The position numbers and the translations under genes are program-made. Positions 16,731 through 51,121 of a DNA stretch of 64,000 nt are shown piece by piece; within the stretch, counting starts at the first letter, position 1, and the number at the start of each line of letters is the position of its first letter. The notes under the pieces are model-generated. The model saw only the letters and a list, made by a program, of their open reading frames with translations. It was not told the origin of the DNA and did no database searches. This DNA comes from Armatimonadota bacterium (GTDB taxonomy: Bacteria; Armatimonadota; HRBIN16), in assembly GCA_963677485.1 (NCBI GenBank), contig OY781964.1:2976001-3040000 (forward strand), in the 5' to 3' direction.

Positions 16731-17843
16731 TTACAGCCCGTGCTGCTGCCGGTAGAGAACACGCAGCGCATCCAGGCTGACCCGCCTGCCGTCGCGAACC
16801 ACAAACCAGAGGGGGAACCCGTTCAGGCGCGGTGCTGATGTTTGGTTGACGTATGCCGCCGCTTTGTGGATATCCAATACCATATCGCCGAAATCTAGTG
16901 TGGCTTGGTGCGTCAGTGTGGCCCGGAGATCGCGATCTTCAAAGAAAACACCTTCACCTTCGACCAGCAGTCCCGAAACCAATAACTTCTGCATACTCAC
17001 GGGAACCGGCTTGATGTCGTAGGTCGCTTTAGCGACATCATCGAGCTGCTCCACCACCGCATCGACACGCCGCTGACCATATTCGCAGTAGAGCGGGCTG
17101 CTGTCTATCGCGATATACCGCCGACACAACCGTTTGGCCACCGCCGCGGTGGTCATGGTGCCGCCGAACGGGTCCAGCACAAGATCGCCAATTCGGCTAG
17201 AAATGGCGATGACGCGGGTGAGCAGATCCTCGGGTTTCTGGGTGGTGTGCAGCTTATGCCCTTGAGTATCCTTCAGGCGTTCCGTGTTTCGGCACACCGG
17301 AATGCGCCAGACCGAACCCATCTGCTTTCGGATACCGCGCCCATGCTCATCTGAGGTCACGGTGTCGGTGTTGAGGTGTTTTCCAGTGTGGTAGTTGAAG
17401 GTGACTTTCGACTTCTCGCTCTTACCTGCCCAGATCAAGGTTTCGTGGCTGTTGGTCAGCCTTGAGCCGAGGAAGTTCGGGGTGGGATTCGTCTTTTGCC
17501 AGACGACATCGTTGATGATCCAAAACCCCAGCCGCTGCATGATGGCGCCGATGGAGTATATGCACTGCATACCGCCGATTACCCAGAGGGACCCATCTGG
17601 ATGCAGTATCCGCCGGCACTCCGTGAGCCATGCCTCGGTGAATCGCTCGTAATCGGCCAGGTCGGTAAATTGGTTGTCCCAGGCATCGTCGCAACCGTCA
17701 AACGCGCCACCTTTGACGCGGTGCAGGGTGCCCTCAACGCGCATCCAGTACGGCGGATCGGCGAAGATCAAGGCCACGCTGTTGTCCTCTATGGCCTTCA
17801 TCGCCGTGAGGGTGTCCTGGCAGATGATCTGGTTGACTAGCAA
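16731..17843 (-). CDS. Beta-class N6-adenine DNA methyltransferase, CcrM/M.HinfI-like, with C-terminal domain
   Basis: IFADPPY, WIINDVVWQKTNPTPNF.G.RLTNSHETLIWA, ERLKD..G.KLH.TQKPE, DPFGGT.TT. Confidence 0.9.
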   Translation of the reverse strand: MLVNQIICQDTLTAMKAIEDNSVALIFADPPYWMRVEGTLHRVKGGAFDGCDDAWDNQFTDLADYERFTEAWLTECRRILHPDGSLWVIGGMQCIYSIGAIMQRLGFWIINDVVWQKTNPTPNFLGSRLTNSHETLIWAGKSEKSKVTFNYHTGKHLNTDTVTSDEHGRGIRKQMGSVWRIPVCRNTERLKDTQGHKLHTTQKPEDLLTRVIAISSRIGDLVLDPFGGTMTTAAVAKRLCRRYIAIDSSPLYCEYGQRRVDAVVEQLDDVAKATYDIKPVPVSMQKLLVSGLLVEGEGVFFEDRDLRATLTHQATLDFGDMVLDIHKAAAYVNQTSAPRLNGFPLWFVVRDGRRVSLDALRVLYRQQHGL

Positions 17844-17861: not shown

Positions 17862-18623
17862 CTATTTTGCCGCACTAAACTTGCGGGCTGCTTCGGGGTC
17901 GATGTCGCCTGTGATTGTCATCTGAGCTTTGCCGCAGACGATGCTCGCGATGCTGATAGGGGCGCCCATCTGCTTTAAGTCCAGCAGTGGCCGGTTGAGG
18001 AACTGACCCATGATGGCATTCTTCACCGATTCAGGCAGGTTGAAGCCCAGGGCGTGGACCTCTGCTGCCCGGATCCAGACGGTGCCATCGGGACGGAGAT
18101 CGGGCACACCGATCACTTTGGCACTCAGCCGGGTGATTGGCGTCACGGCTACCAGCGATATGGTGACCCCGTCTGGTGCAACGGTAAGGTTGATATCCTC
18201 CAGCCGTTTGACCACCCTGTTCCACGGGCTGCCGATTTCGGGCAGGTGCTTCAGAACATAGGCTTCAATGTTCTCCTGGCTGATATTCGCGGTGTAGGTT
18301 CCCTTGGCGAACAGGATGCCTTCCGGGGTCTGTGAGACGTCCTGCACGGTGGCGTCCAGCCAGTCCACAATGAGCCCGGGGCGAATCTCTACTGCTTCAC
18401 CTTGAATATGTGCCGATTGTGCCTTCATCTTTAACACTCCCATGTCTAGTCCCAAACGGACGCGGTAGCTCTTGGCTGGTGCCAGCATCACTTGAAGTCT
18501 TTGTTCGGCTTTGTTCTCGATTTTTCGCACTGGGTTGCAACCGGCCAGGCTGACGCAGACCGCCGTGATGGCAACCGACAATGCCGAAAACTTAAAATTG
18601 TGGAGGATATGCTTAGGTTTCAT
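17862..18623 (-). CDS. Lipoprotein, DUF2993/LmeA-like
   Basis: Lipobox LAGC. Elongated beta-rich pattern ending in a MTITG motif. Confidence 0.55.
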   Translation of the reverse strand: MKPKHILHNFKFSALSVAITAVCVSLAGCNPVRKIENKAEQRLQVMLAPAKSYRVRLGLDMGVLKMKAQSAHIQGEAVEIRPGLIVDWLDATVQDVSQTPEGILFAKGTYTANISQENIEAYVLKHLPEIGSPWNRVVKRLEDINLTVAPDGVTISLVAVTPITRLSAKVIGVPDLRPDGTVWIRAAEVHALGFNLPESVKNAIMGQFLNRPLLDLKQMGAPISIASIVCGKAQMTITGDIDPEAARKFSAAK

Positions 18624-18989: not shown

Positions 18990-19559
18990 TTGCTCGATAA
19001 ATCTGTTCCGTATTACCGCGTGATTCTACGCCGTGATCCCGGCACACCTCTTCCCGAAGTGGAGGTGCCTGAGGGTTACACCATTGTGGGCTATCAACCT
19101 GGTGACGAGGTTGCCTGGGGGGAGATCGAAAGCTCAGTGCTGGAATTCGAAACTCCGCAAGCCGCGACGGAGTATTTCCTGCGTGACTATGTGCCGTATG
19201 ATACCGAGGTCAAACGGCGTACATTGTTTGCGCAAGATGCATCCGGCAGGAAGGTGGGCACCTTCACCGCATGGTGGAACTACACCGGCTCAAGGCGGGT
19301 GCCGTTCATGCACTGGGTGGCTGTGATGCCAGAACACCAGGGGAGGGGCGTTGGCAAGGCTCTGGTGGCCGCTGGTGTTCGGTTGATGGTGGAGATCGAA
19401 GGAGACTGTGAGATGTTTTTGCACACGCAGACCTGGAGTCACAAGGCGATACGCATCTACCGCTGGGCTGGTTTTGAACTGGACACACAGAATGAAGCAC
19501 CCGGTGGATACCGCAATGAGACCCAGCAGGCCTTGCCGATACTTGAGGGATTGATATAA
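18990..19559 (+). CDS. GNAT family N-acetyltransferase
   Basis: HWVAVMPEHQGRGVGKAL, LHTQTWSHKAIRIY..AGF. Confidence 0.92.
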   Translation: MLDKSVPYYRVILRRDPGTPLPEVEVPEGYTIVGYQPGDEVAWGEIESSVLEFETPQAATEYFLRDYVPYDTEVKRRTLFAQDASGRKVGTFTAWWNYTGSRRVPFMHWVAVMPEHQGRGVGKALVAAGVRLMVEIEGDCEMFLHTQTWSHKAIRIYRWAGFELDTQNEAPGGYRNETQQALPILEGLI

Positions 19560-19564
19560 CGCAT

Positions 19565-19602
19565 AAAAAAGGCCCGGCATCACAGGGAGGTTGATGCCGG
19601 GC
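19565..19602 (-). terminator. Intrinsic terminator closing the riboswitch-controlled operon (possibly bidirectional)
   Basis: GCCCGGCATCA/TGATGCCGGGC stem with an A6 run on the left (T-run on the minus strand). Confidence 0.8.
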
Positions 19603-19614
19603 TAGTGGGAGAGG

Positions 19615-20742
19615 TCAGTTGCTTCCTTGGGCTCCAAACGCGGTGTCAATCTGCACATAATCAAACAGATTGACGTACCCATCCATGTTGATATCGCAAA
19701 GCGGGTCAGTGTTACCGAAGTGTTTGTCCAGCTCCACGAAGTCGAACAGGTTGATCTGATTATCCCCATTGGTATCTCCGCGAATCAGGGAGATGTTCAC
19801 GGAGCTACTTGCTGTTGGGTTGATCGTCATTTTGGCGGTCAGGCAGCCCGGGGCTTGCACCAGCATCTCTACGGGTGCTGAGATGGGGGTGCTGAAGGAG
19901 AAGTCGCCCTGGTCATCAATAGTGACCGGTATTGTCTGCAGAGCTGTGTGGCTGACAGGGTCGCGCAGCACCGCCTGCATGTTCCTGACGCCAGCTCCAT
20001 AGGGCTTCTGAATGGCTGATATGGATATCTGCCCGCTATAGTTCACGTCGGCATCGTGAACGATGCTGATAGCGTCGACCTCAGGCGAATAACCCGCGAC
20101 GTTCAACGCCGGGGTAATGCGCACAAAGTCCACGTGATCAAGAACGACCGGCTGGCCGTTGGAGTCAACTGCCCAGTCGAGGTTGATGGCATCTCCACCA
20201 GCGGAACCGGGAGTGATTCCGTTGGTAAAGGGGTCACTTGGAATCCGAGGGTTGCCAGTGCCATCGGTCGGGGTGCAGTCGGCGTATCCCCAGATCGGAT
20301 TCTTCGTTCGGTCGATGGCTCCATAACTGTAAGTCGGATTCGAAGAACCTTTAATGCGATAGAACAGATCGCTGGCATCATATCCGTTACCATTCACATC
20401 AACTCCGACTTCAATAGTGCCAGGCTCCTGAAAGACATAGTTTACACTGCCGCCTTGATACATCGCATTTCCGAACACGATCAAGTCATACCCAGTGCCG
20501 TTTGGTATCTTTCTGTCAAAGCCCAGCGTCAACTGCCCACCGATTCCGATACTCACAACATCCGTGATTTCAGGCACCGATGGAGTGGCAACTATGGATG
20601 GAGCACCCAACGCCGTGGCAGAAATGATCCGTGCCGGGCTAGCCCCCTGTGTATAGGAGATGACGCGGGTGGCAAAGTCGGAACTCCAGCAATAACAACT
20701 GGTTCCCAAGAGAAGCATTATTACCGCTGTTGTGAGTTTCAT
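19615..20742 (-). CDS. Secreted BtuH-like (putative cobalamin-binding) surface protein with C-terminal Ig-like plus dockerin-like module
   Basis: VVSIGIGGQLTLGFD, DLIVFGNA, QEPG.IEV..DVNGNG, FY.IKGS, WGYAD, LDWAVDSNGQPVVLDHVDFVRI resemble the Bacteroides BtuH-type domain as I recall it. Tail GDTNGDNQINLFD..DINMDGYVNLFD. Confidence 0.7.
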   Translation of the reverse strand: MKLTTAVIMLLLGTSCYCWSSDFATRVISYTQGASPARIISATALGAPSIVATPSVPEITDVVSIGIGGQLTLGFDRKIPNGTGYDLIVFGNAMYQGGSVNYVFQEPGTIEVGVDVNGNGYDASDLFYRIKGSSNPTYSYGAIDRTKNPIWGYADCTPTDGTGNPRIPSDPFTNGITPGSAGGDAINLDWAVDSNGQPVVLDHVDFVRITPALNVAGYSPEVDAISIVHDADVNYSGQISISAIQKPYGAGVRNMQAVLRDPVSHTALQTIPVTIDDQGDFSFSTPISAPVEMLVQAPGCLTAKMTINPTASSSVNISLIRGDTNGDNQINLFDFVELDKHFGNTDPLCDINMDGYVNLFDYVQIDTAFGAQGSN

Positions 20743-20754
20743 TATCTTCGTTCC

Positions 20755-21738
20755 TTATATTCGGCTTTTGCGTTTTCGCGCAATCAAGCCGGTCATCCCC
20801 ATGGCAAGAAGAACCAGGGAGGCAGGTTCTGGCACGGGGCTGGCTTGCACGATGCTGCCGGCTGAGGTGTAGGTGCCGTTGATGAGGATTGATCCATCTC
20901 GCGCGTCCGTCAGGCCGTAACCATAGTCATAAGAAGCATCAAATAGACCCCATCGCGTAACGGAACCATTCGCGTACCGGGATACGGTGCTTCCTGTCGT
21001 GGCCAGAAGACTGCCGTCTGATAACCATAGGATACTGGAACAACCCGAACCTTCTCCATTGAGCAACGAAATGGTGTCCACCAAGGAGCCCGTATTGCTC
21101 AGCTTTAAGATATTGCCTGCATTACCGGCGAAGTTGGGGTCGTTGGTATCTCCAACGAAGATGTTTCCTAGATTATCGAGTGCGATTCCGCCAAGATACC
21201 CTGTGCCAAGACCGGTGGCTATTGCCGTGACGTTGCCGTTGTTCACCAGGCTTACCCCACCTGCACCAGGTGCGGAGGCATCGACCACATAGTATGATCC
21301 ATTCCCTGCATAGGCGATCTGTGCAGGTGAGGCCAATGCGTTCATGCTGGTGAGCGCGTTCAGTGTACTGGTGTTAAGTGAGTAGCTCCAAGCCGCGTTG
21401 GTATCGGAGTTTTCGGTGAAAGCCAGTGTGTTATCGTCGGCCCAGGTCAGTCCACCGAATGTACCAAAAGTCTGTCCCGACGGCGCGGCGATACGGGCAA
21501 CCTCAGTTCGTCCGCTGCCTACTTTGTCGTAAATGACTATAGTGCCGCCACCAGCGTAACTATCCTGTGCAAGGGCAAAAAGACCGCTTTGACTAACGGC
21601 CATTTCGGCACCCGTGATCCCAAGGTTGTTGATGGACCATCCTGGTGCGTTAAATCCCGCGGAAGATTGCGAGGGGAGTGATAGGGTAGACAGGGTCACC
21701 ATAGCCAGTATGGCCATGCCCAGTTTGCGGATCATCAT
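20755..21738 (-). CDS. PEP-CTERM sorting-domain protein with probable beta-propeller
   Basis: Signal peptide; repeated blade-like motifs (GLTWADDNTL, QIAYAGNGSY, GIALDNLGNI, ILWLSDGSL, GLTDARDGSI); VPEPASLVLLAMGMTGLIARKRK. Confidence 0.9.
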   Translation of the reverse strand: MMIRKLGMAILAMVTLSTLSLPSQSSAGFNAPGWSINNLGITGAEMAVSQSGLFALAQDSYAGGGTIVIYDKVGSGRTEVARIAAPSGQTFGTFGGLTWADDNTLAFTENSDTNAAWSYSLNTSTLNALTSMNALASPAQIAYAGNGSYYVVDASAPGAGGVSLVNNGNVTAIATGLGTGYLGGIALDNLGNIFVGDTNDPNFAGNAGNILKLSNTGSLVDTISLLNGEGSGCSSILWLSDGSLLATTGSTVSRYANGSVTRWGLFDASYDYGYGLTDARDGSILINGTYTSAGSIVQASPVPEPASLVLLAMGMTGLIARKRKSRI

Positions 21739-21807
21739 TCTGAAAGCTCTCCTAATAAGTGAGTAGATTTATACTTCGCTATCAGGCAGAGGGAGTGAAG
21801 GTGCCAT

Positions 21808-21841
21808 AAAACAAAAAATCCTGTCCTTTATTTGGACAGGG
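21808..21841 (-). terminator. Attenuator terminator (riboswitch expression platform)
   Basis: Minus strand CCTGTCC-AAATAAA-GGACAGG-ATTTTTTGTTTT, lying between the aptamer and the start codon. Confidence 0.8.
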
Positions 21842-21865
21842 TGTGTATGGTGATACCTATAACCA

Positions 21866-22016
21866 CACCCCTTTGCGCGAAGGGTTGATACTTGCTAACC
21901 TTAGGCTGGCGTTCGGACTTATCCGCACTAAGCGGCTTACCGTAGCGGCACTGCACCGGAATCTCACCGGATTTCCCCTACTGTCTCGTATGATAGAGAC
22001 AGACCTAAGGCTATTC
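21866..22016 (-). promoter_or_regulatory. Cobalamin (B12) riboswitch
   Basis: Minus strand CCTTAGGT..AGGGGAAATCCGGTGAGATTCCGGTGCAGTGCCGCTACGGTAA..AAGTCCGAACGCCAGCCTAAGG (B12-box, P1 closure), then a P13-like hairpin CCCTT-CGCGCA-AAGGG. Confidence 0.88.
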
Positions 22017-22034
22017 ATATTCAGTTGTCAATTA

Positions 22035-22063
22035 AGTTTATCCAAGCTGTGAGCTGATGTCAA
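22035..22063 (-). promoter_or_regulatory. Sigma70-type promoter upstream of the riboswitch
   Basis: TTGACA-17 bp-TAAACT on the minus strand. Confidence 0.7.
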
Positions 22064-22252: not shown

Positions 22253-22427
22253 TATCTTTGCCGGAGCGAAACGGGGTAAGCCCCTCGAGCCGGTTGGGAC
22301 CTTGAAAACTAGGTGAAGCAGCGAACCAAACGTCAGTTGAAAGACTGACAAGAATGGTAATTCGGTTTTGAAGCTAATCGATCCACTAAAGTTGGAACTT
22401 AGCCCTGTAAAGGGATTAAGGATATTC

Positions 22428-23977
<1,550 letters not shown>

Positions 23978-24085
23978 GGAAGCGCCCCACTCTTCGGAGT
24001 GGTGAGCATCTCTCAGGTCGTCCGAGTTATTATTCTTTAGTTTTGGTTTAACAAGTTTCACCTAGTCTCCGCGGTCTCGCGGCGT

Positions 24086-24162
<77 letters not shown>

Positions 24163-24171
24163 CCCAAGTTT

Positions 24172-24247
24172 GGGGGATTAGCTCAGTTGGGAGAGCACCT
24201 GCTTTGCAAGCAGGGGGTCAGCGGTTCGAGCCCGCTATCCTCCACCA
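24172..24247 (+). tRNA. tRNA-Ala (TGC)
   Basis: GGGGGAT..TTTGCAA..GTTCGAG..ATCCTCCACCA with the G3:U70 pair. Confidence 0.98.
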
Positions 24248-24546
24248 AGATTTAGGTTTTGGTAGGTGGGTGGCAGGTAAGAAGAAATGCCGGGTTGCAA
24301 TCCGGCAAAGTTGTCACGAAAGTGGCGAGACGCACATTGAAAATCGCATAGGGTAGACATGGCATCTTTAAGTTAAGAAGCTATGGTTTAGGATGAATAA
24401 TCCAAAAATCAAAGCTAATTACTTGAAGCTACACATTTCACAAAACAAACAAGACAGTCACAGAAGGAAACTTCTGTAATGAATTCTATAGATGGTGGCA
24501 CATTGCAGTAATGTAGTGTGTTGCGCCTCTAAGGTATCGAAGCTCA

Positions 24547-27479
<2,933 letters not shown>

Positions 27480-27573
27480 TGAGCCCGATACTTTAAGGGC
27501 GCACACCGCCTATAGATAAGTTGTGTGAAATGCGGCCATGTCTACCCGATGCGATCTAATCGCGTCAAGGCTC

Positions 27574-27691
27574 TCCTGGTGATCACGGCGGAGGGGATAC
27601 ACTCGTTCCCATACCGAACACGACCGTTAAGCCCTCCAGCGCCGAAAGTACTTGGGGCGCAAGCCTCCGGGAGGATAGGACATCGCCAGGG
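27574..27691 (+). rRNA. rrf: 5S ribosomal RNA
   Basis: CCTGGTGATC..CCCATACCGAACAC..GTTAAG..CGCCAGG. Confidence 0.95.
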
Positions 27692-46324: not shown

Positions 46325-47935
46325 ATGAAAAAGAACTGTCTGACCACCTTAATGCTCTTCATATTGTCTATCAGCTCGCTCATGGCGCACGCGGTCAGTA
46401 TCAGCGGCGAATTTGAGATCGCGGCAGATACCCACCAGCAGATGACTTTCGGAGCCGCGTTCGACGGCAGCAACTACATTGTGACCCTTCAGGGAAATGC
46501 CAGCGACTCCTGGGCTATCTGTGCTCAGATGATTTCGTCGATGGGCGAAAAGGTGGGTGGCCTCATTAATATCGGGCGATACGGTGACACGCCCATCATC
46601 GCCTTTGATGGCACAAGATACCTGATGGTCTGGACCGATTATGCTCATACACCCGATGATGACATTTATGGATGTTTCATTAGCAAGAGTGGCGTCGTCG
46701 GCACGCCGTTTGTCATCTCCTCCGCACCGGGTATGCAAAAAGTGGCCAGCATGGGCTTTGATGGCACCAACTACATGGTGGTTTGGGACGACTATCGGAA
46801 TGAATCATCAAGTAACGCTATTGACATATACGCTCAGCGTGTATCCACCTCCGGTTCGCTGGTGGGCTCCGAGATCGCAGTGTGCAGCCAGGCACGTGAC
46901 CAGCGTAATGCGGCCATGGCCTTCGACGGCACCAACTACCTGGTGACATATATGAATAAACGCAGTGAAAATCCTAACATCCGGGATATCAACGGCAACT
47001 TCATGTCCAAGTCGGGTGTCGTGGGCAGCCAGTTCAAGATCAACACCACGGATTGTCCGAACAGCCAAAACCCCATCGGGCTGGCATACGGTAAGGACGG
47101 CTACATGGTGGTTTGGGGCAAGGACATGGGGGCTGGTGGCAATGCCGATGCCATATGGGATGTCTACGGCCGTGTGATCGCCCCGAATGGTACATTCAGA
47201 AGCTCTGAGCTGGCGATTTCCACCATACCAGGCAGCCAGGCCTTTCCCAGAGTCACCAGCGACGGCACCCGGTATTTCGTAGTGTGGACTGACCTTTCCC
47301 TTCCCGATGTGGAGATAACAGGGCAGTTTTTCAGTGAGACCGGCACGACAGTGACCGGAACCTTCCCCGTGGTATCAGGAACAGGTCCCAGGGCGGTATA
47401 CGCGACCTTGTTTGCTGACGGCCAATATTACCTTGGGGTGATGGAGGGTTTGAAGGTCAACGAATGGGGTATAGCTGATATATATGGTGTCACGGTAGAC
47501 TTCGCGACCGGGGCACCCACCACGCTGCAAGTGACGATTAACCCAGGTGCAGGCTATCTGGGAGCACTGAGTGGCGTCCCACTGCAGTATGACCTGAGCG
47601 GTCCGTGGCAATATACGGGATCGCTGATGCTAAATGACAGCGGCAAAGCGATGCTGGACGGTGTAGAGCCAGGTAGCTACAACCTGAGTATTTCTGGCAG
47701 TCACTGGCTGAAACGGGTGGTGTCAGGCGTGAATGTGAATGGCGTCAATGTGGTGAACACGGTGCTTTCGAATGGCGACGCCGATGGCAACGGCCAGATT
47801 AACCTGTTCGACTACGTCGTGCTGGATTCCAAGTTCGGTTCCTCATATTCGATGGCTGATCTTGACGGTGATGGCGCGGTGAACCTGTTCGACTACGTGA
47901 TCATCGACCAGAACTTCGGAGCTCAGGCCGACTAG
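46325..47935 (+). CDS. Secreted repeat protein (FDGTNYLVVW-type repeats, probable propeller) with C-terminal dockerin-like module
   Basis: Signal peptide; about six (A/G)FDG..Y.VVW.D repeats; tail GSHWLKR..NGDADGNGQINLFD..DLDGDGAVNLFD..FGAQAD. Confidence 0.85.
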   Translation: MKKNCLTTLMLFILSISSLMAHAVSISGEFEIAADTHQQMTFGAAFDGSNYIVTLQGNASDSWAICAQMISSMGEKVGGLINIGRYGDTPIIAFDGTRYLMVWTDYAHTPDDDIYGCFISKSGVVGTPFVISSAPGMQKVASMGFDGTNYMVVWDDYRNESSSNAIDIYAQRVSTSGSLVGSEIAVCSQARDQRNAAMAFDGTNYLVTYMNKRSENPNIRDINGNFMSKSGVVGSQFKINTTDCPNSQNPIGLAYGKDGYMVVWGKDMGAGGNADAIWDVYGRVIAPNGTFRSSELAISTIPGSQAFPRVTSDGTRYFVVWTDLSLPDVEITGQFFSETGTTVTGTFPVVSGTGPRAVYATLFADGQYYLGVMEGLKVNEWGIADIYGVTVDFATGAPTTLQVTINPGAGYLGALSGVPLQYDLSGPWQYTGSLMLNDSGKAMLDGVEPGSYNLSISGSHWLKRVVSGVNVNGVNVVNTVLSNGDADGNGQINLFDYVVLDSKFGSSYSMADLDGDGAVNLFDYVIIDQNFGAQAD

Positions 47936-48066: not shown

Positions 48067-49185
48067 ATGAATACCAGAACGGTTTGCCTCACAGCAATTC
48101 TGGCTGCAGCATTTGCCTCCATTTCCGGTGCTGCACCGGTCTCTGTGGTGGTCACACCAGACAATATGCAGGGATGGACCAGCCAGGTCAGCGGCACGAC
48201 TGGTTCTTTTACCTTTGTCAATGGCCCTTCTACGATCGGTAGTGGCAGCATGGTCATGTCAGTCGGAGCTAGCGGGGGTGATGTCATCGCTTTCAGAACC
48301 GCCTCATATGGCAGACTTAAGTTGGCCAGGATCAACTCGCTGAAGATGGATACCCGTGTCACAAACTTCGGCAGCTCGACACCGAAGGGCCTTGCCATGC
48401 AGATTGATGTCGACTGGAATGACGACGGTGCCGTCGATGACCAACTGGTTTACGAGCCGATCTATAACAATAACACATTCAACCAGACACCTGCTCTGAA
48501 TACCTGGCAGACATGGGACATTCTGAATAACGGAACCTGGTATTCAGTAGGCGGGTATGCTGGGATGGGGCAGTCCACACCCCATAAACTGTCACAGTAT
48601 ATCTCCAACTACCCTGATGCACGGATTACGGAGGGCGGGCTTGGGCATTTGCGGATATTCGCAGGTTATTCCGCAGGTTATTGGGATAACTTCACTGCCG
48701 CTATCGATAATCTGCAGATTGGCGCATTGGATTTCGTTCATATCTACGACTTTGAGCCAAGTCAGACCACCTCGCTGGGGATCACTGTGGACCCGGGCCT
48801 TGGTTTCATTGGTGCGTTGAACGGCATCATCCTGAACTACAGTCTGAGTGGTCCGCGTTCATATACTGGTTCGTTGACGCTGGACGCCAGCGGAAAATCA
48901 CAGATCAGCGGGGTTGTGCCCGGTACGTATAGCCTTAGCTTGACGGGCAGCCATTGGACAAAACGTATCATCAACGATATCAATGTGAATGGCACAACGT
49001 CCATTAACACCACGCTGACGAATGGCGATTCCGACGGCGATAGCCAGATCAACCTGTTCGACTTTGTCGTGCTGGATTCGAAGTTCGGCTCCTCAGATGC
49101 CATGGCTGACTTGAACGGCGACGGCCAGGTCAACCTTTTCGACTACGTCATCATCGACCAGAACTTCGGAGCCCAGGGGGACTAG
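48067..49185 (+). CDS. Secreted protein of unknown function with C-terminal dockerin-like module
   Basis: Signal peptide; LVYEP, WQTWD domain; same C-terminal module. AAGGAG RBS. Confidence 0.85.
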   Translation: MNTRTVCLTAILAAAFASISGAAPVSVVVTPDNMQGWTSQVSGTTGSFTFVNGPSTIGSGSMVMSVGASGGDVIAFRTASYGRLKLARINSLKMDTRVTNFGSSTPKGLAMQIDVDWNDDGAVDDQLVYEPIYNNNTFNQTPALNTWQTWDILNNGTWYSVGGYAGMGQSTPHKLSQYISNYPDARITEGGLGHLRIFAGYSAGYWDNFTAAIDNLQIGALDFVHIYDFEPSQTTSLGITVDPGLGFIGALNGIILNYSLSGPRSYTGSLTLDASGKSQISGVVPGTYSLSLTGSHWTKRIINDINVNGTTSINTTLTNGDSDGDSQINLFDFVVLDSKFGSSDAMADLNGDGQVNLFDYVIIDQNFGAQGD

Positions 49186-49384: not shown

Positions 49385-51121
49385 TTGTTAAACCGTACCT
49401 CGATACTCGGCGCATTGAGCTTAATCATATGTGCGTCAGGATCCATAAACGCTGCCCCCAGAAATGTGATACTAATGGTTGCCGATGGGTGGGGATATAA
49501 CCAGATCGCTGCGGCTCGATCATATATCGGTTCGAACCCATCTTATCAAAGCTCCGACTTCACCTCAGTGGCCATGTCCACCTATTCTGCGAGTAACACT
49601 GCTGGATACAACACTCAAACCGCCTGGACATCTGACGGAGCTGGTGGCTTGAAACCCAACTATGAGACTTTGAAGTCAGGCACCGGTGCTACAGACAGTG
49701 CCGCCGCAATCACCGCAATGATGACTGGCGAAAAGACTTATGATGGTCGAATCAACTGGAGCACATCCGGCCAGCGTCTGACCACCTTTGCTGATAGCTA
49801 CAAGATATCCGGTCATTCGGTGGGTGCGGTCACCACAGTGCCGTGGAGCCACGCCACGCCTTCTGGCGTGATGGGACATAATATCAGCCGAGGTAATTAT
49901 TCGGAACTCGCAAACGAAATGGTCAACTCGTCCATCGATGTGGTAATGGGTGCTGGGAATCCCGGCTATGATGACAACAGTAATCCTGCAGTTAGCAGCG
50001 CGTTATACGTGGGCGGTGCAGCCACATGGAATGCCCTAAAGGCTGGCACTTCTGGCGGATTGACCCCCTGGACGTTGATTGAAGATCGTAGTGCATTCCA
50101 GGCACTGGCATCTGGAGCTACCCCAAATCGTGTGCTGGGCGCATATAAAAGCTACACATCGATGCAGCAAGCCCGCTCGGGAGATGGTCAGACTGTAGAC
50201 ATCGAGGGCCGCAAGACGGTTGTGCCCACTCTGGCCGAGATGTCAAAAGCGGCACTGAACGTTCTGGATAACAACCCGAAAGGCTTCTTTCTGATGATTG
50301 AGGGTGGTGCAGTCGACTACGCGAACCATGCCAATCAGAAGGGGCGGCTGATAGAGGAGATGCTGGACTTTAACAGTGCGGTTGATGCTGTTGTGAACTA
50401 CATCAACAGTAATAGTAACTGGGAAGAGACGCTATTGATTGTTGCCGGCGACCATGAGTGCGGCTTATTGCTTGGCCCCAACGGTGAGACTGATATTGTG
50501 GGAACACCGACTGGCAGTATTCCAAGTATGAAGTATTTTAGTGGCAGCCATTCCAATCAGCTAATCCCTCTATATGCGCGGGGTGCTGGTTCAGAACTGC
50601 TGTCTCAGTATGCTGTAAAAACGGATCTTGTGAGGGGGAAATACATCGACAACACCGATGTGTTCAAGCTGATGACTGCAGCAACAGCGGCACCTGCGAC
50701 CACTACACTACCGATTACAATTGGTGCTGGCCCAGGGTATGGCGGTGCCAGAAACCTGATCGAACTTCACTGCCGGCTTGAAGGATCAACGCAATATACT
50801 GGGACGCTATCGCTAGATCGCAACGGTAGAACCACCATAGATAACATCCTGCCTGGCCGTTACACGATCACCCTCTCGGGCAGTCACTGGCTAAACCGGA
50901 TCATCAAAGATGTCAATGTGAATGGCGCAAACAGCCTGATTGTTGCACTGGTAAATGGTGATTCCGATGGGAATGGCCAGATCAACCTGTTCGACTTCGT
51001 AGTGCTGGATTCGAAGTTCGGCTCCTCAGATGCCATGGCAGACTTGAACGGTGATGGCGTGGTGAACCTGTTCGATTACGTGATCATCGACCAAAACTTC
51101 GGAGCCCAAGGCGACAAATAG
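49385..51121 (+). CDS. Alkaline phosphatase with C-terminal dockerin-like module
   Basis: NVILMVADG, TDSAAA, HATP, GFFLMIEGG.VD..NHAN, GDHE; same tail. Confidence 0.92.
   Translation: MLNRTSILGALSLIICASGSINAAPRNVILMVADGWGYNQIAAARSYIGSNPSYQSSDFTSVAMSTYSASNTAGYNTQTAWTSDGAGGLKPNYETLKSGTGATDSAAAITAMMTGEKTYDGRINWSTSGQRLTTFADSYKISGHSVGAVTTVPWSHATPSGVMGHNISRGNYSELANEMVNSSIDVVMGAGNPGYDDNSNPAVSSALYVGGAATWNALKAGTSGGLTPWTLIEDRSAFQALASGATPNRVLGAYKSYTSMQQARSGDGQTVDIEGRKTVVPTLAEMSKAALNVLDNNPKGFFLMIEGGAVDYANHANQKGRLIEEMLDFNSAVDAVVNYINSNSNWEETLLIVAGDHECGLLLGPNGETDIVGTPTGSIPSMKYFSGSHSNQLIPLYARGAGSELLSQYAVKTDLVRGKYIDNTDVFKLMTAATAAPATTTLPITIGAGPGYGGARNLIELHCRLEGSTQYTGTLSLDRNGRTTIDNILPGRYTITLSGSHWLNRIIKDVNVNGANSLIVALVNGDSDGNGQINLFDFVVLDSKFGSSDAMADLNGDGVVNLFDYVIIDQNFGAQGDK

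Follow-up and report, generated by a model that had tools for sequence, protein, structure and literature searches.

A cobalamin riboswitch-controlled operon of an Armatimonadota bacterium as a probable corrinoid-capture module with a BtuH-type domain protein and a PEP-CTERM propeller

Most microbes need vitamin B12 (cobalamin), few make it, and the mode of its capture therefore shapes microbial communities. How is the vitamin captured by a bacterium that requires it and seems unable to make it? This question is raised by a two-gene operon on the minus strand of a 64,000-nucleotide (nt) stretch of DNA from an Armatimonadota bacterium (GenBank assembly GCA_963677485.1, contig OY781964.1, positions 2,976,001 to 3,040,000). 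This whole stretch is called the window below, and coordinates refer to it unless another locus is named. The operon follows a cobalamin riboswitch and consists of gene 1, encoding a PEP-CTERM beta-propeller, and gene 2, encoding a protein with a predicted BtuH-type corrinoid-binding domain (Table 1). We conclude that it is probably a B12-repressed corrinoid-capture module in a B12-requiring bacterium seemingly unable to make B12. The original prediction for this unit had proposed a riboswitch-controlled surface module without a transporter, in which a propeller analogous to BtuG and a BtuH-like protein are anchored by an exosortase signal and a dockerin-like tag rather than by lipidation.

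A profile of the gene 2 domain (A1) was built from 61 homologs and compared with solved protein chains. Two chains came out far ahead of all others: 8blw_B at residues 389-659, the H-domain of BtuG1 (expectation value, E, 2.5e-31), and 7biz_A at residues 223-485, the C-terminal domain of BtuH2 (E 2.5e-24). In the available parts of the source papers, 8BLW is described as BtuB1-BtuG1, BtuG1 having a C-terminal BtuH domain (PMC10404256), and 7BIZ as BtuH2 of Bacteroides thetaiotaomicron with B12 bound in the C-terminal globular domain (PMC8941943). When the A1 profile was aligned by hhalign with Bacteroidota BtuG1-like proteins, a probability of 99.8% was obtained (E 3e-29), and a WGYAD motif is common to both sides. 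The structure model of gene 2 (predicted local distance difference test, pLDDT, 91.6) retrieved 8blw_B as the best Foldseek match (E 1.3e-10) and 7biz at rank 4 (E 1e-7); the three-domain make-up of the model accounts for the low template modelling (TM) scores to these two chains (0.35). Judged by sequence, homology of gene 2 to the BtuH domain is firm, in line with the original prediction, and conservation of the binding pocket is partial.

The second line of evidence is the linkage of both genes to cobalamin riboswitches. A strong BtuH-domain match was found with A1 in 34 of 401 Armatimonadota genomes, the host included. Of these 34 genomes, 27 have a match to the riboswitch family RF00174 0.17-1.7 kb upstream of the BtuH gene, on its contig and strand; one of these 27 elements (genome G065) falls below the gathering score. 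The RF00174 search covered the 33 other BtuH-bearing genomes, and for 19 of these the upstream element was the sole match in the genome. The propeller family (A2 profile) was detected in 16 genomes of the 401, each a member of the 34 and each with a single copy. A riboswitch was located at most 320 nt upstream of the propeller gene in 14 of the 16; the remaining two genes lie at contig ends. The riboswitch of the genome stands before the propeller gene, away from the BtuH gene, in G007 and G100, and in G023 propeller and BtuH gene each have a riboswitch of their own.

A search for related loci gave 80. Their titles point to other groups besides Armatimonadota, with many from Phycisphaerae and other Planctomycetota and further ones from Hydrogenedentes, Omnitrophota, Verrucomicrobia, Victivallales, and Spirochaetes. 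When 20 non-Armatimonadota loci were scanned (Planctomycetota, Hydrogenedentes, Omnitrophota, Spirochaetes), RF00174 was present upstream on the same strand in 16. Flanks are truncated in two of the four misses (L067 and L078). In an Omnitrophota locus (L083, 3119-5183), the riboswitch is followed by a BtuH-domain gene and then by one for a PEP-CTERM-tailed protein of DUF4465 (the BtuJ family). The latter gives a second case in which a B12 binder is directed through exosortase. One Spirochaetes locus has a TonB-dependent receptor and a YNCE-like propeller after its BtuH-domain gene.

The third line of evidence concerns the pairing of the two proteins. A sequence search with gene 2 returned 116 proteins, 26 of which were at least 500 amino acids long and had an A1 match. 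In 19 of these 26 long homologs, the propeller is joined to the BtuH domain, with an A2 match across the whole propeller. The PEP-like motif between the fused domains is absent in 14 of the 19 fusions and kept in five. Fusions of the type seen in L009 (G230) and L018 (G186), and in the proteins P0013, P0014, P0016, and P0018, run through propeller, PEP-CTERM, BtuH domain, and a second PEP-CTERM in one open reading frame (ORF), placing two sorting signals within a single polypeptide. Strict co-occurrence, shared riboswitch control, and the 19 fusions show, at the level of genomes and sequences, that the propeller is coupled to the BtuH-domain protein. A complex prediction for propeller residues 26-300 with BtuH-domain residues 20-235 scored 0.02, against a mark of 0.32, and was used neither way.

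The gene 1 protein comprises an N-terminal signal peptide or hydrophobic helix, a six-bladed NHL-type beta-propeller (approximately residues 30-300), and the PEP-CTERM tail. Its AlphaFold2 model (pLDDT 89.5; predicted TM score 0.83) has 24 beta strands, which form six four-stranded blades. Among the matches listed, the closest solved structures were the TRIM2 NHL domain, Pizza6, Brat, and the PknD sensor, with Z values of about 26 and root-mean-square deviations of 2.5-3.0 Å across 240-257 residues. The tail scored above the cut-offs of both PEP-CTERM models (PF07589, 27 bits against 20.7; TIGR02595, 23.4 against 16), and three exosortase genes were detected in the host genome (PF09721; two at E 1e-55). 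The description of gene 1 as a PEP-CTERM beta-propeller was therefore confirmed. A match to the lipoprotein LIC_13355 (22.8 bits against a cut-off of 120) was too weak and was not used. Neither of the two proteins matched PF14717 (DUF4465).

Behind the BtuH-type domain, residues 233-375 of gene 2 match type II X-module-dockerin structures in Foldseek, with target-normalised TM scores of 0.65-0.69 for 5m0y_B, 5k39_B, and 2b59_B. The immunoglobulin (Ig)-like module within this region has a weak CarboxypepD_reg match, and the dockerin region shows two repeats of the DxNxDG type, with solved dockerins matching at E 3.7e-5 and weaker. Dockerins are common in the host genome (51 matches to PF00404) and seem to serve a general surface-display system. 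Three of the matches lie within the window itself (approximately 47774-47914, 49024-49164, and 50957-51097; plus strand). At its end, the signal peptide of gene 2 has a lipobox-like LGTSC, a pattern present in 11 of the 61 family members, including the two closest orthologs; the gene 2 protein may therefore be lipidated. Of the anchoring scheme in the original prediction, the PEP-CTERM tail and the dockerin-like tail were supported, the latter joined here to an X module, whereas the exclusion of lipidation was too strong.

The host physiology fits a need for capture. The genome consists of one contig and is about 97% complete by estimate. It encodes a split MetH, a corrinoid protein with DUF1638, and a B12-binding radical-SAM enzyme; CbiC, CobS, and MetE were looked for in the genome and not found. 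Because MetH is present and MetE, CbiC, and CobS were not found, the host must import B12. The split MetH (L035, 1946-5418, plus strand) is made up of a 345-amino-acid homocysteine-methyltransferase and an overlapping gene of 840 amino acids with pterin-binding, B12-binding, and activation domains. No match to TonB-dependent receptors (PF00593) was found in the host genome; among the 33 other BtuH-bearing Armatimonadota genomes, such receptors were present in 18 and not found in 15. The host has one strong FecCD permease match (L033, 5677-6681, plus strand), with no ATPase or binding-protein gene beside it, and one BtuF-type binding protein (Peripla_BP_2; G000:C1:1527110-1527763, plus strand), 2.1 Mb from the FecCD gene. 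The two are candidate parts of an inner-membrane B12 importer. Three secretins were also detected. Since CbiC occurs in only four of the 401 Armatimonadota genomes, no one of which belongs to the 34 with a BtuH domain, a cross-tabulation of the module against B12 biosynthesis is uninformative; for the same reason, the phylum looks almost wholly reliant on external B12.

The riboswitch match reached E 7.6e-10 when the whole window was searched against 4227 families and E 6e-12 for a 501-nt stretch, and it spans model positions 1-189 of RF00174. The aptamer is a short form, in which 8 nt stand in place of 61 consensus positions of the peripheral extension. Short aptamers in the window's family of genomes scored 43-51 bits, whereas those of other Armatimonadota, located before the same genes, are full-length and scored 90-126 bits. 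Possibly, the ligand preference of the short form differs from that of the full-length ones; like class II riboswitches, it may favour methyl- or aquo-cobalamin. Across the 5.22 Mb host genome, this aptamer was the only riboswitch above the cut-off. The attenuator hairpin (21840-21820), with seven pairs of which five are G-C, is followed by ATTTTTTGTT. It lies 47 nt 3' of the aptamer and approximately 70 nt 5' of the gene 1 start codon, and it is part of the minimum-free-energy structure of the leader. We infer an antiterminator pairing of AGGGGUGUG with CACACCCU. At the other end of the operon, the 3' terminator folds with -22.1 kcal/mol (z = -4.8), and equal folding was reached in none of 200 shuffles. 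Every element of the predicted layout was found at its place on the minus strand, the promoter on weak evidence. A search of sequencing runs returned no RNA data set containing the operon.

Table 1. Features of the two-gene operon and their positions in the window.
Feature	Position	Strand	Basis
Sigma-70-like promoter candidate, TTGACA, 17 nt, TAAACT	22035-22063	-	10 of 12 matches
Cobalamin riboswitch aptamer, RF00174	21887-22023	-	Infernal, 51.2 bits against a gathering score of 31.5
Expression platform/attenuator: terminator hairpin CCTGTCC/GGACAGG and T-run	21806-21840	-	Hairpin scan and leader fold
Gene 1, 327 amino acids	20755-21738	-	ORF; AGGAG 8 nt before ATG
Gene 1, residues 301-327: PEP-CTERM motif, transmembrane helix, and basic tail, VPEPASLVLLAMGMTGLIARKRKSRI	20758-20838	-	PF07589, TIGR02595
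Gene 2, 375 amino acids	19615-20742	-	ORF; 12 nt after gene 1
Gene 2, residues 20-232: BtuH-type corrinoid-binding domain (predicted)	20047-20685	-	Profile search, hhalign, Foldseek
Gene 2, residues 233-320: Ig-like beta-sandwich, X-module-like	19783-20046	-	Model strands 233-319, Foldseek
Gene 2: dockerin, two Ca-binding repeats, DTNGDNQINLFD and DINMDGYVNLFD	19618-19782	-	PF00404, borderline
3' intrinsic terminator of the operon	19564-19602	-	11-bp stem at 19602-19572, then UUUUUU

The unit is closed, being bounded by its 3' terminator, by a convergent GNAT acetyltransferase gene (18990-19559, plus strand), and by a divergent ribosomal RNA (rRNA) operon (from 22426, plus strand), and no transporter gene lies inside it. 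The rRNA operon is complete (22426-27691, plus strand), with 16S, two transfer RNA genes (24086-24159 and 24172-24244), 23S, and 5S, and starts approximately 360 nt from the riboswitch promoter in the opposite direction. Near the GNAT gene lies a gene for an LmeA-like phospholipid-binding protein (17862-18623, minus strand); also encoded beyond the GNAT gene is a DNA methylase that carries a RAMA domain at its C terminus (16731-17843, minus strand).

A third protein appears repeatedly in this regulon. Other families of Armatimonadota have three genes behind the riboswitch, for a pseudopilin-like protein, a longer BtuH-domain protein, and a distant homolog of the propeller with a PEP-CTERM (hhalign, 99.5%, E 4e-22). 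The pseudopilin-like protein carries the prepilin-type N-terminal methylation motif (N_methyl) and matches DUF1559 in part. The gene order in G145 and G036 is propeller, BtuH, and pseudopilin-like; in Phycisphaerae it is a distant propeller homolog with a PEP-CTERM-like tail (hhalign, 97%, E 9e-11), a BtuH-domain protein whose end is EF-hand or dockerin-like, and the pseudopilin-like gene. Within the window's own family, additional riboswitch matches precede stand-alone pseudopilin-like genes (G141, G093, G123, G150 twice, and G230), and in G093 and G123 riboswitch matches were also found before BtuR; some of these matches lie just below the threshold.

The host has a second, sub-threshold riboswitch candidate of 29.1 bits, covering core positions 46-168 only (G000:C1:3437636-3437710, minus strand; L037, 6637-6711). 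Directly downstream lies an N_methyl gene of 250 amino acids (L037, 5855-6607, minus strand), which was the best whole-genome tblastn match, near full length, for 13 of 15 pseudopilin-like queries taken from riboswitch operons. The remaining two queries, both from Phycisphaerae, matched only other host genes, via the generic N-terminus. As 13 of the 15 queries point to this riboswitch-preceded gene, the B12 regulon of the host very probably has two units.

These observations suggest the following course of events. At low B12, the aptamer would be empty and the terminator hairpin would not form, leaving both genes to be transcribed; with B12 in ample supply, the aptamer would bind its ligand and let the terminator form, and transcription would end in the leader. 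Both products carry N-terminal hydrophobic helices and would be exported by Sec. The gene 2 protein would then bind cobalamin outside the cytoplasm through its BtuH-type domain, as homology, fold, and regulon linkage suggest, and would be held at the surface by its X-module and dockerin tail, possibly with a lipid anchor. The propeller would be fixed to the envelope by PEP-CTERM/exosortase sorting and act with the BtuH-domain protein as an obligate partner; its part could be that of a second binder, of a docking platform, or of a hand-off partner. From there the captured vitamin would pass inward without a TonB-dependent BtuB, the likely destination being the single FecCD-type permease and the single BtuF-type binding protein of the host. 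Help on this inward route may come from the pseudopilin-like protein, which has a weak riboswitch of its own.

Several observations weigh against the operon being a capture module of this kind. They concern (i) the binding pocket of gene 2. The available text of PMC8941943 names eight B12 contacts of BtuH2 (Gln333, Asn399, Phe401, His476, Tyr510, Trp511, Trp577, and Leu578; the 7biz chain numbering equals that of the paper minus 100). Only two of these eight are conserved in gene 2 when mapped by HMMER alignment rather than by superposition, namely Asn399 (N92, nearly invariant in the family) and Tyr510 (Y153, invariant in A1). Phe401 corresponds to M94, the family consensus being F; Trp511 is replaced by A154, likewise in the BtuG1-like proteins (WGYAD); His476 falls within an insertion missing from gene 2; and Gln333, Trp577, and Leu578 have no conserved counterpart. 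They further concern (ii) the propeller, in which there is no known ligand site and whose profile shows no similarity to BtuG1-like DUF5074 propellers (hhalign probability, 0.2%).

Other such points concern (iii) the riboswitch linkage. Five of the seven Armatimonadota misses (G308, G393, G186, G347, and G213) have a contig end within approximately 1.2 kb upstream; for this reason they are uninformative rather than supportive. In G308, another contig ends with the riboswitch and the first half of the propeller gene. The BtuH genes of both G007 and G100 lack a riboswitch, the upstream intergenic space in G007 being only 94 nt. Beyond Armatimonadota, the upstream flank is complete in L076 and L090 and gave no RF00174 match at the gathering score, and the 20 scanned loci had been picked from the 80 for diversity and size. 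Moreover, (iv) the region contains two promoter-like sites, which is not above chance given a mean of 3.2 in shuffles; the promoter candidate is weak evidence because shuffles yield more such sites than the region. Finally, (v) the dockerin scored 19.2 bits with PF00404 in hmmscan, under the cut-off of 22.9 (23.8 bits in the six-frame search), and no cohesin (PF00963) was found in the host genome at E up to 0.01.

In the original prediction, the propeller had been taken as an analog of BtuG. The gene 1 protein gave no match to PF16819 (BtuG, DUF5074) at E up to 0.1, and no BtuG structure appeared among the matches listed in the structure searches, Foldseek included. Given these results, together with the hhalign value, homology to BtuG was dropped; the analogy was retained, with B12 binding by the propeller as pure conjecture.

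Two accounts of the propeller are to be weighed. According to the first, which may well apply although it falls somewhat short of being probable, the propeller is a scaffold or an enzyme, which anchors or receives the BtuH-domain protein, or processes corrinoids or their carriers outside the cell. The BtuH proteins of L007, L010, and L014 (264-283 amino acids) are tail-less and have no anchor of their own, while the propeller keeps its PEP-CTERM. Moreover, lactonases and other hydrolases (Drp35, paraoxonase, DFPase) were among the six-bladed structural matches, and the invariant motifs of the propeller include GLGTGYLGGI and GDTNDP. However, binding modules (NHL, PknD sensor), and not enzymes, head the structural matches, and no catalytic residues were identified in the propeller.

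The second account, which goes back to the original prediction, appears unlikely, though a good deal speaks for it: the propeller would be a high-affinity corrinoid binder in the part of BtuG, fed by the BtuH-domain protein in a relay of two binders. It is the first gene after the riboswitch in 14 of 16 genomes, and it has its own riboswitch in G007, G100, and G023. The 19 fusions with the BtuH domain follow the same domain logic as BtuG1/BtuGH, in which both domains bind B12 according to the available text of a review (PMC13616437), and the distant PEP-CTERM-tailed homologs occupy the same operons in other Armatimonadota and in Phycisphaerae. Against this account, the propeller has six NHL-type blades, compared with seven in BtuG (PMC13616437, as far as available), it is unrelated by profile and by PF16819 to BtuG-type propellers, and the B12-contact residues cannot be mapped on it. 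A role of the operon outside uptake, be it as B12-repressed adhesins that attach a starved cell to producers or in withholding or storing B12 against neighbours, would suit two surface-directed proteins in an operon without a transporter, the wide use of dockerins in the host, and the retention of B12 for hours by Bacteroides BtuH2 (reported in the available part of PMC10404256), which favours sequestration, but it is very improbable because the cell, with MetH and with no MetE, CbiC, or CobS found, must import B12, and because the gene 2 domain is homologous to a protein needed for Bacteroides B12 transport (PMC8941943, in its available part) and adjoins a TonB receptor in the Spirochaetes locus.

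With corrinoid capture as the preferred reading, the recurrent pseudopilin-like partner leads to a further speculation, which we consider a distinct outsider. The operon could be one half of an undescribed TonB-independent B12 uptake pathway shared by Armatimonadota, Phycisphaerae (Planctomycetota), and Hydrogenedentes. In such a pathway, the PEP-CTERM propeller, the BtuH-domain binder, and the pseudopilin-like protein would form a riboswitch-controlled relay across the envelope, and in cells lacking BtuB a pseudopilus would carry or pull the vitamin through a secretin-type outer-membrane channel, by analogy with competence pseudopili and DNA. The idea draws on the presence of the trio behind cobalamin riboswitches in these three groups, on the weak second riboswitch before the host's own pseudopilin-like gene, and on the three secretins and missing TonB receptor of the host. 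Such a pseudopilin-assisted, TonB-independent route would, if true, represent a new kind of vitamin uptake.

Until now, BtuH-mediated surface capture has been regarded as particular to gut Bacteroidota, where it serves the BtuB-BtuG transporter. In the available text of the review, BtuH homologs are confined to Bacteroidota and three Firmicutes (PMC13616437). Here, the same domain, controlled by the same type of RNA switch, was found in Armatimonadota and in no fewer than four further phyla, with new partners: a propeller family known only from this regulon, PEP-CTERM/dockerin anchoring, and a pseudopilin-like protein. In the literature outside subscription journals and supplements, we found no B12-regulated PEP-CTERM propeller, no BtuH homolog of Armatimonadota or Planctomycetota, and no riboswitch-controlled pseudopilin; within that scope, the statement that no such corrinoid-scavenging system had been described in this lineage was upheld. 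The presence of the module in genomes without a TonB-dependent receptor raises the question of how B12 crosses the outer membrane without BtuB, for which there are now three candidate proteins.

Four known systems can be compared with the operon. These are (i) the E. coli btuB riboswitch and BtuB-BtuFCD, where a cobalamin riboswitch likewise shuts off an uptake component and the inner-membrane parts are likewise encoded elsewhere, whereas here there is no TonB-dependent receptor and the regulated genes encode capture proteins and not a channel; (ii) BtuJ (DUF4465), whose members are likewise surface corrinoid scavengers in several phyla, according to the available text of a preprint (10.1101/2025.08.21.671476), but differ in fold and family from both window proteins; (iii) BtuG1/BtuGH (BT1490, 8BLW chain B), the closest solved relative of the gene 2 domain, with which it shares WGYAD; and (iv) BtuH2 (BT1956, 7BIZ) of B. 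thetaiotaomicron. BtuG1/BtuGH is a fusion of propeller and BtuH domain, as are the 19 relatives of the window operon; its propeller, however, is of the seven-bladed DUF5074/BtuG type and sits on BtuB, whereas the one described here is six-bladed, NHL-like, equipped with PEP-CTERM, and unrelated by profile. BtuH2 resembles the gene 2 protein in its homologous B12-binding domain, surface export, control by a B12 riboswitch, and Ig-like accessory domains. In gene 2, however, the domain stands at the N terminus, an insertion of approximately 60-70 residues is missing from it, the contact residues are partly kept, and an X module and dockerin tail take the place of the N-terminal PKD domains. Over 80% of btuH genes in gut Bacteroidetes are co-encoded with BtuB (PMC8941943, available part), whereas the Armatimonadota host has neither BtuB nor BtuG near the operon or elsewhere in its genome, and its BtuH-type domain is paired with the PEP-CTERM propeller instead.

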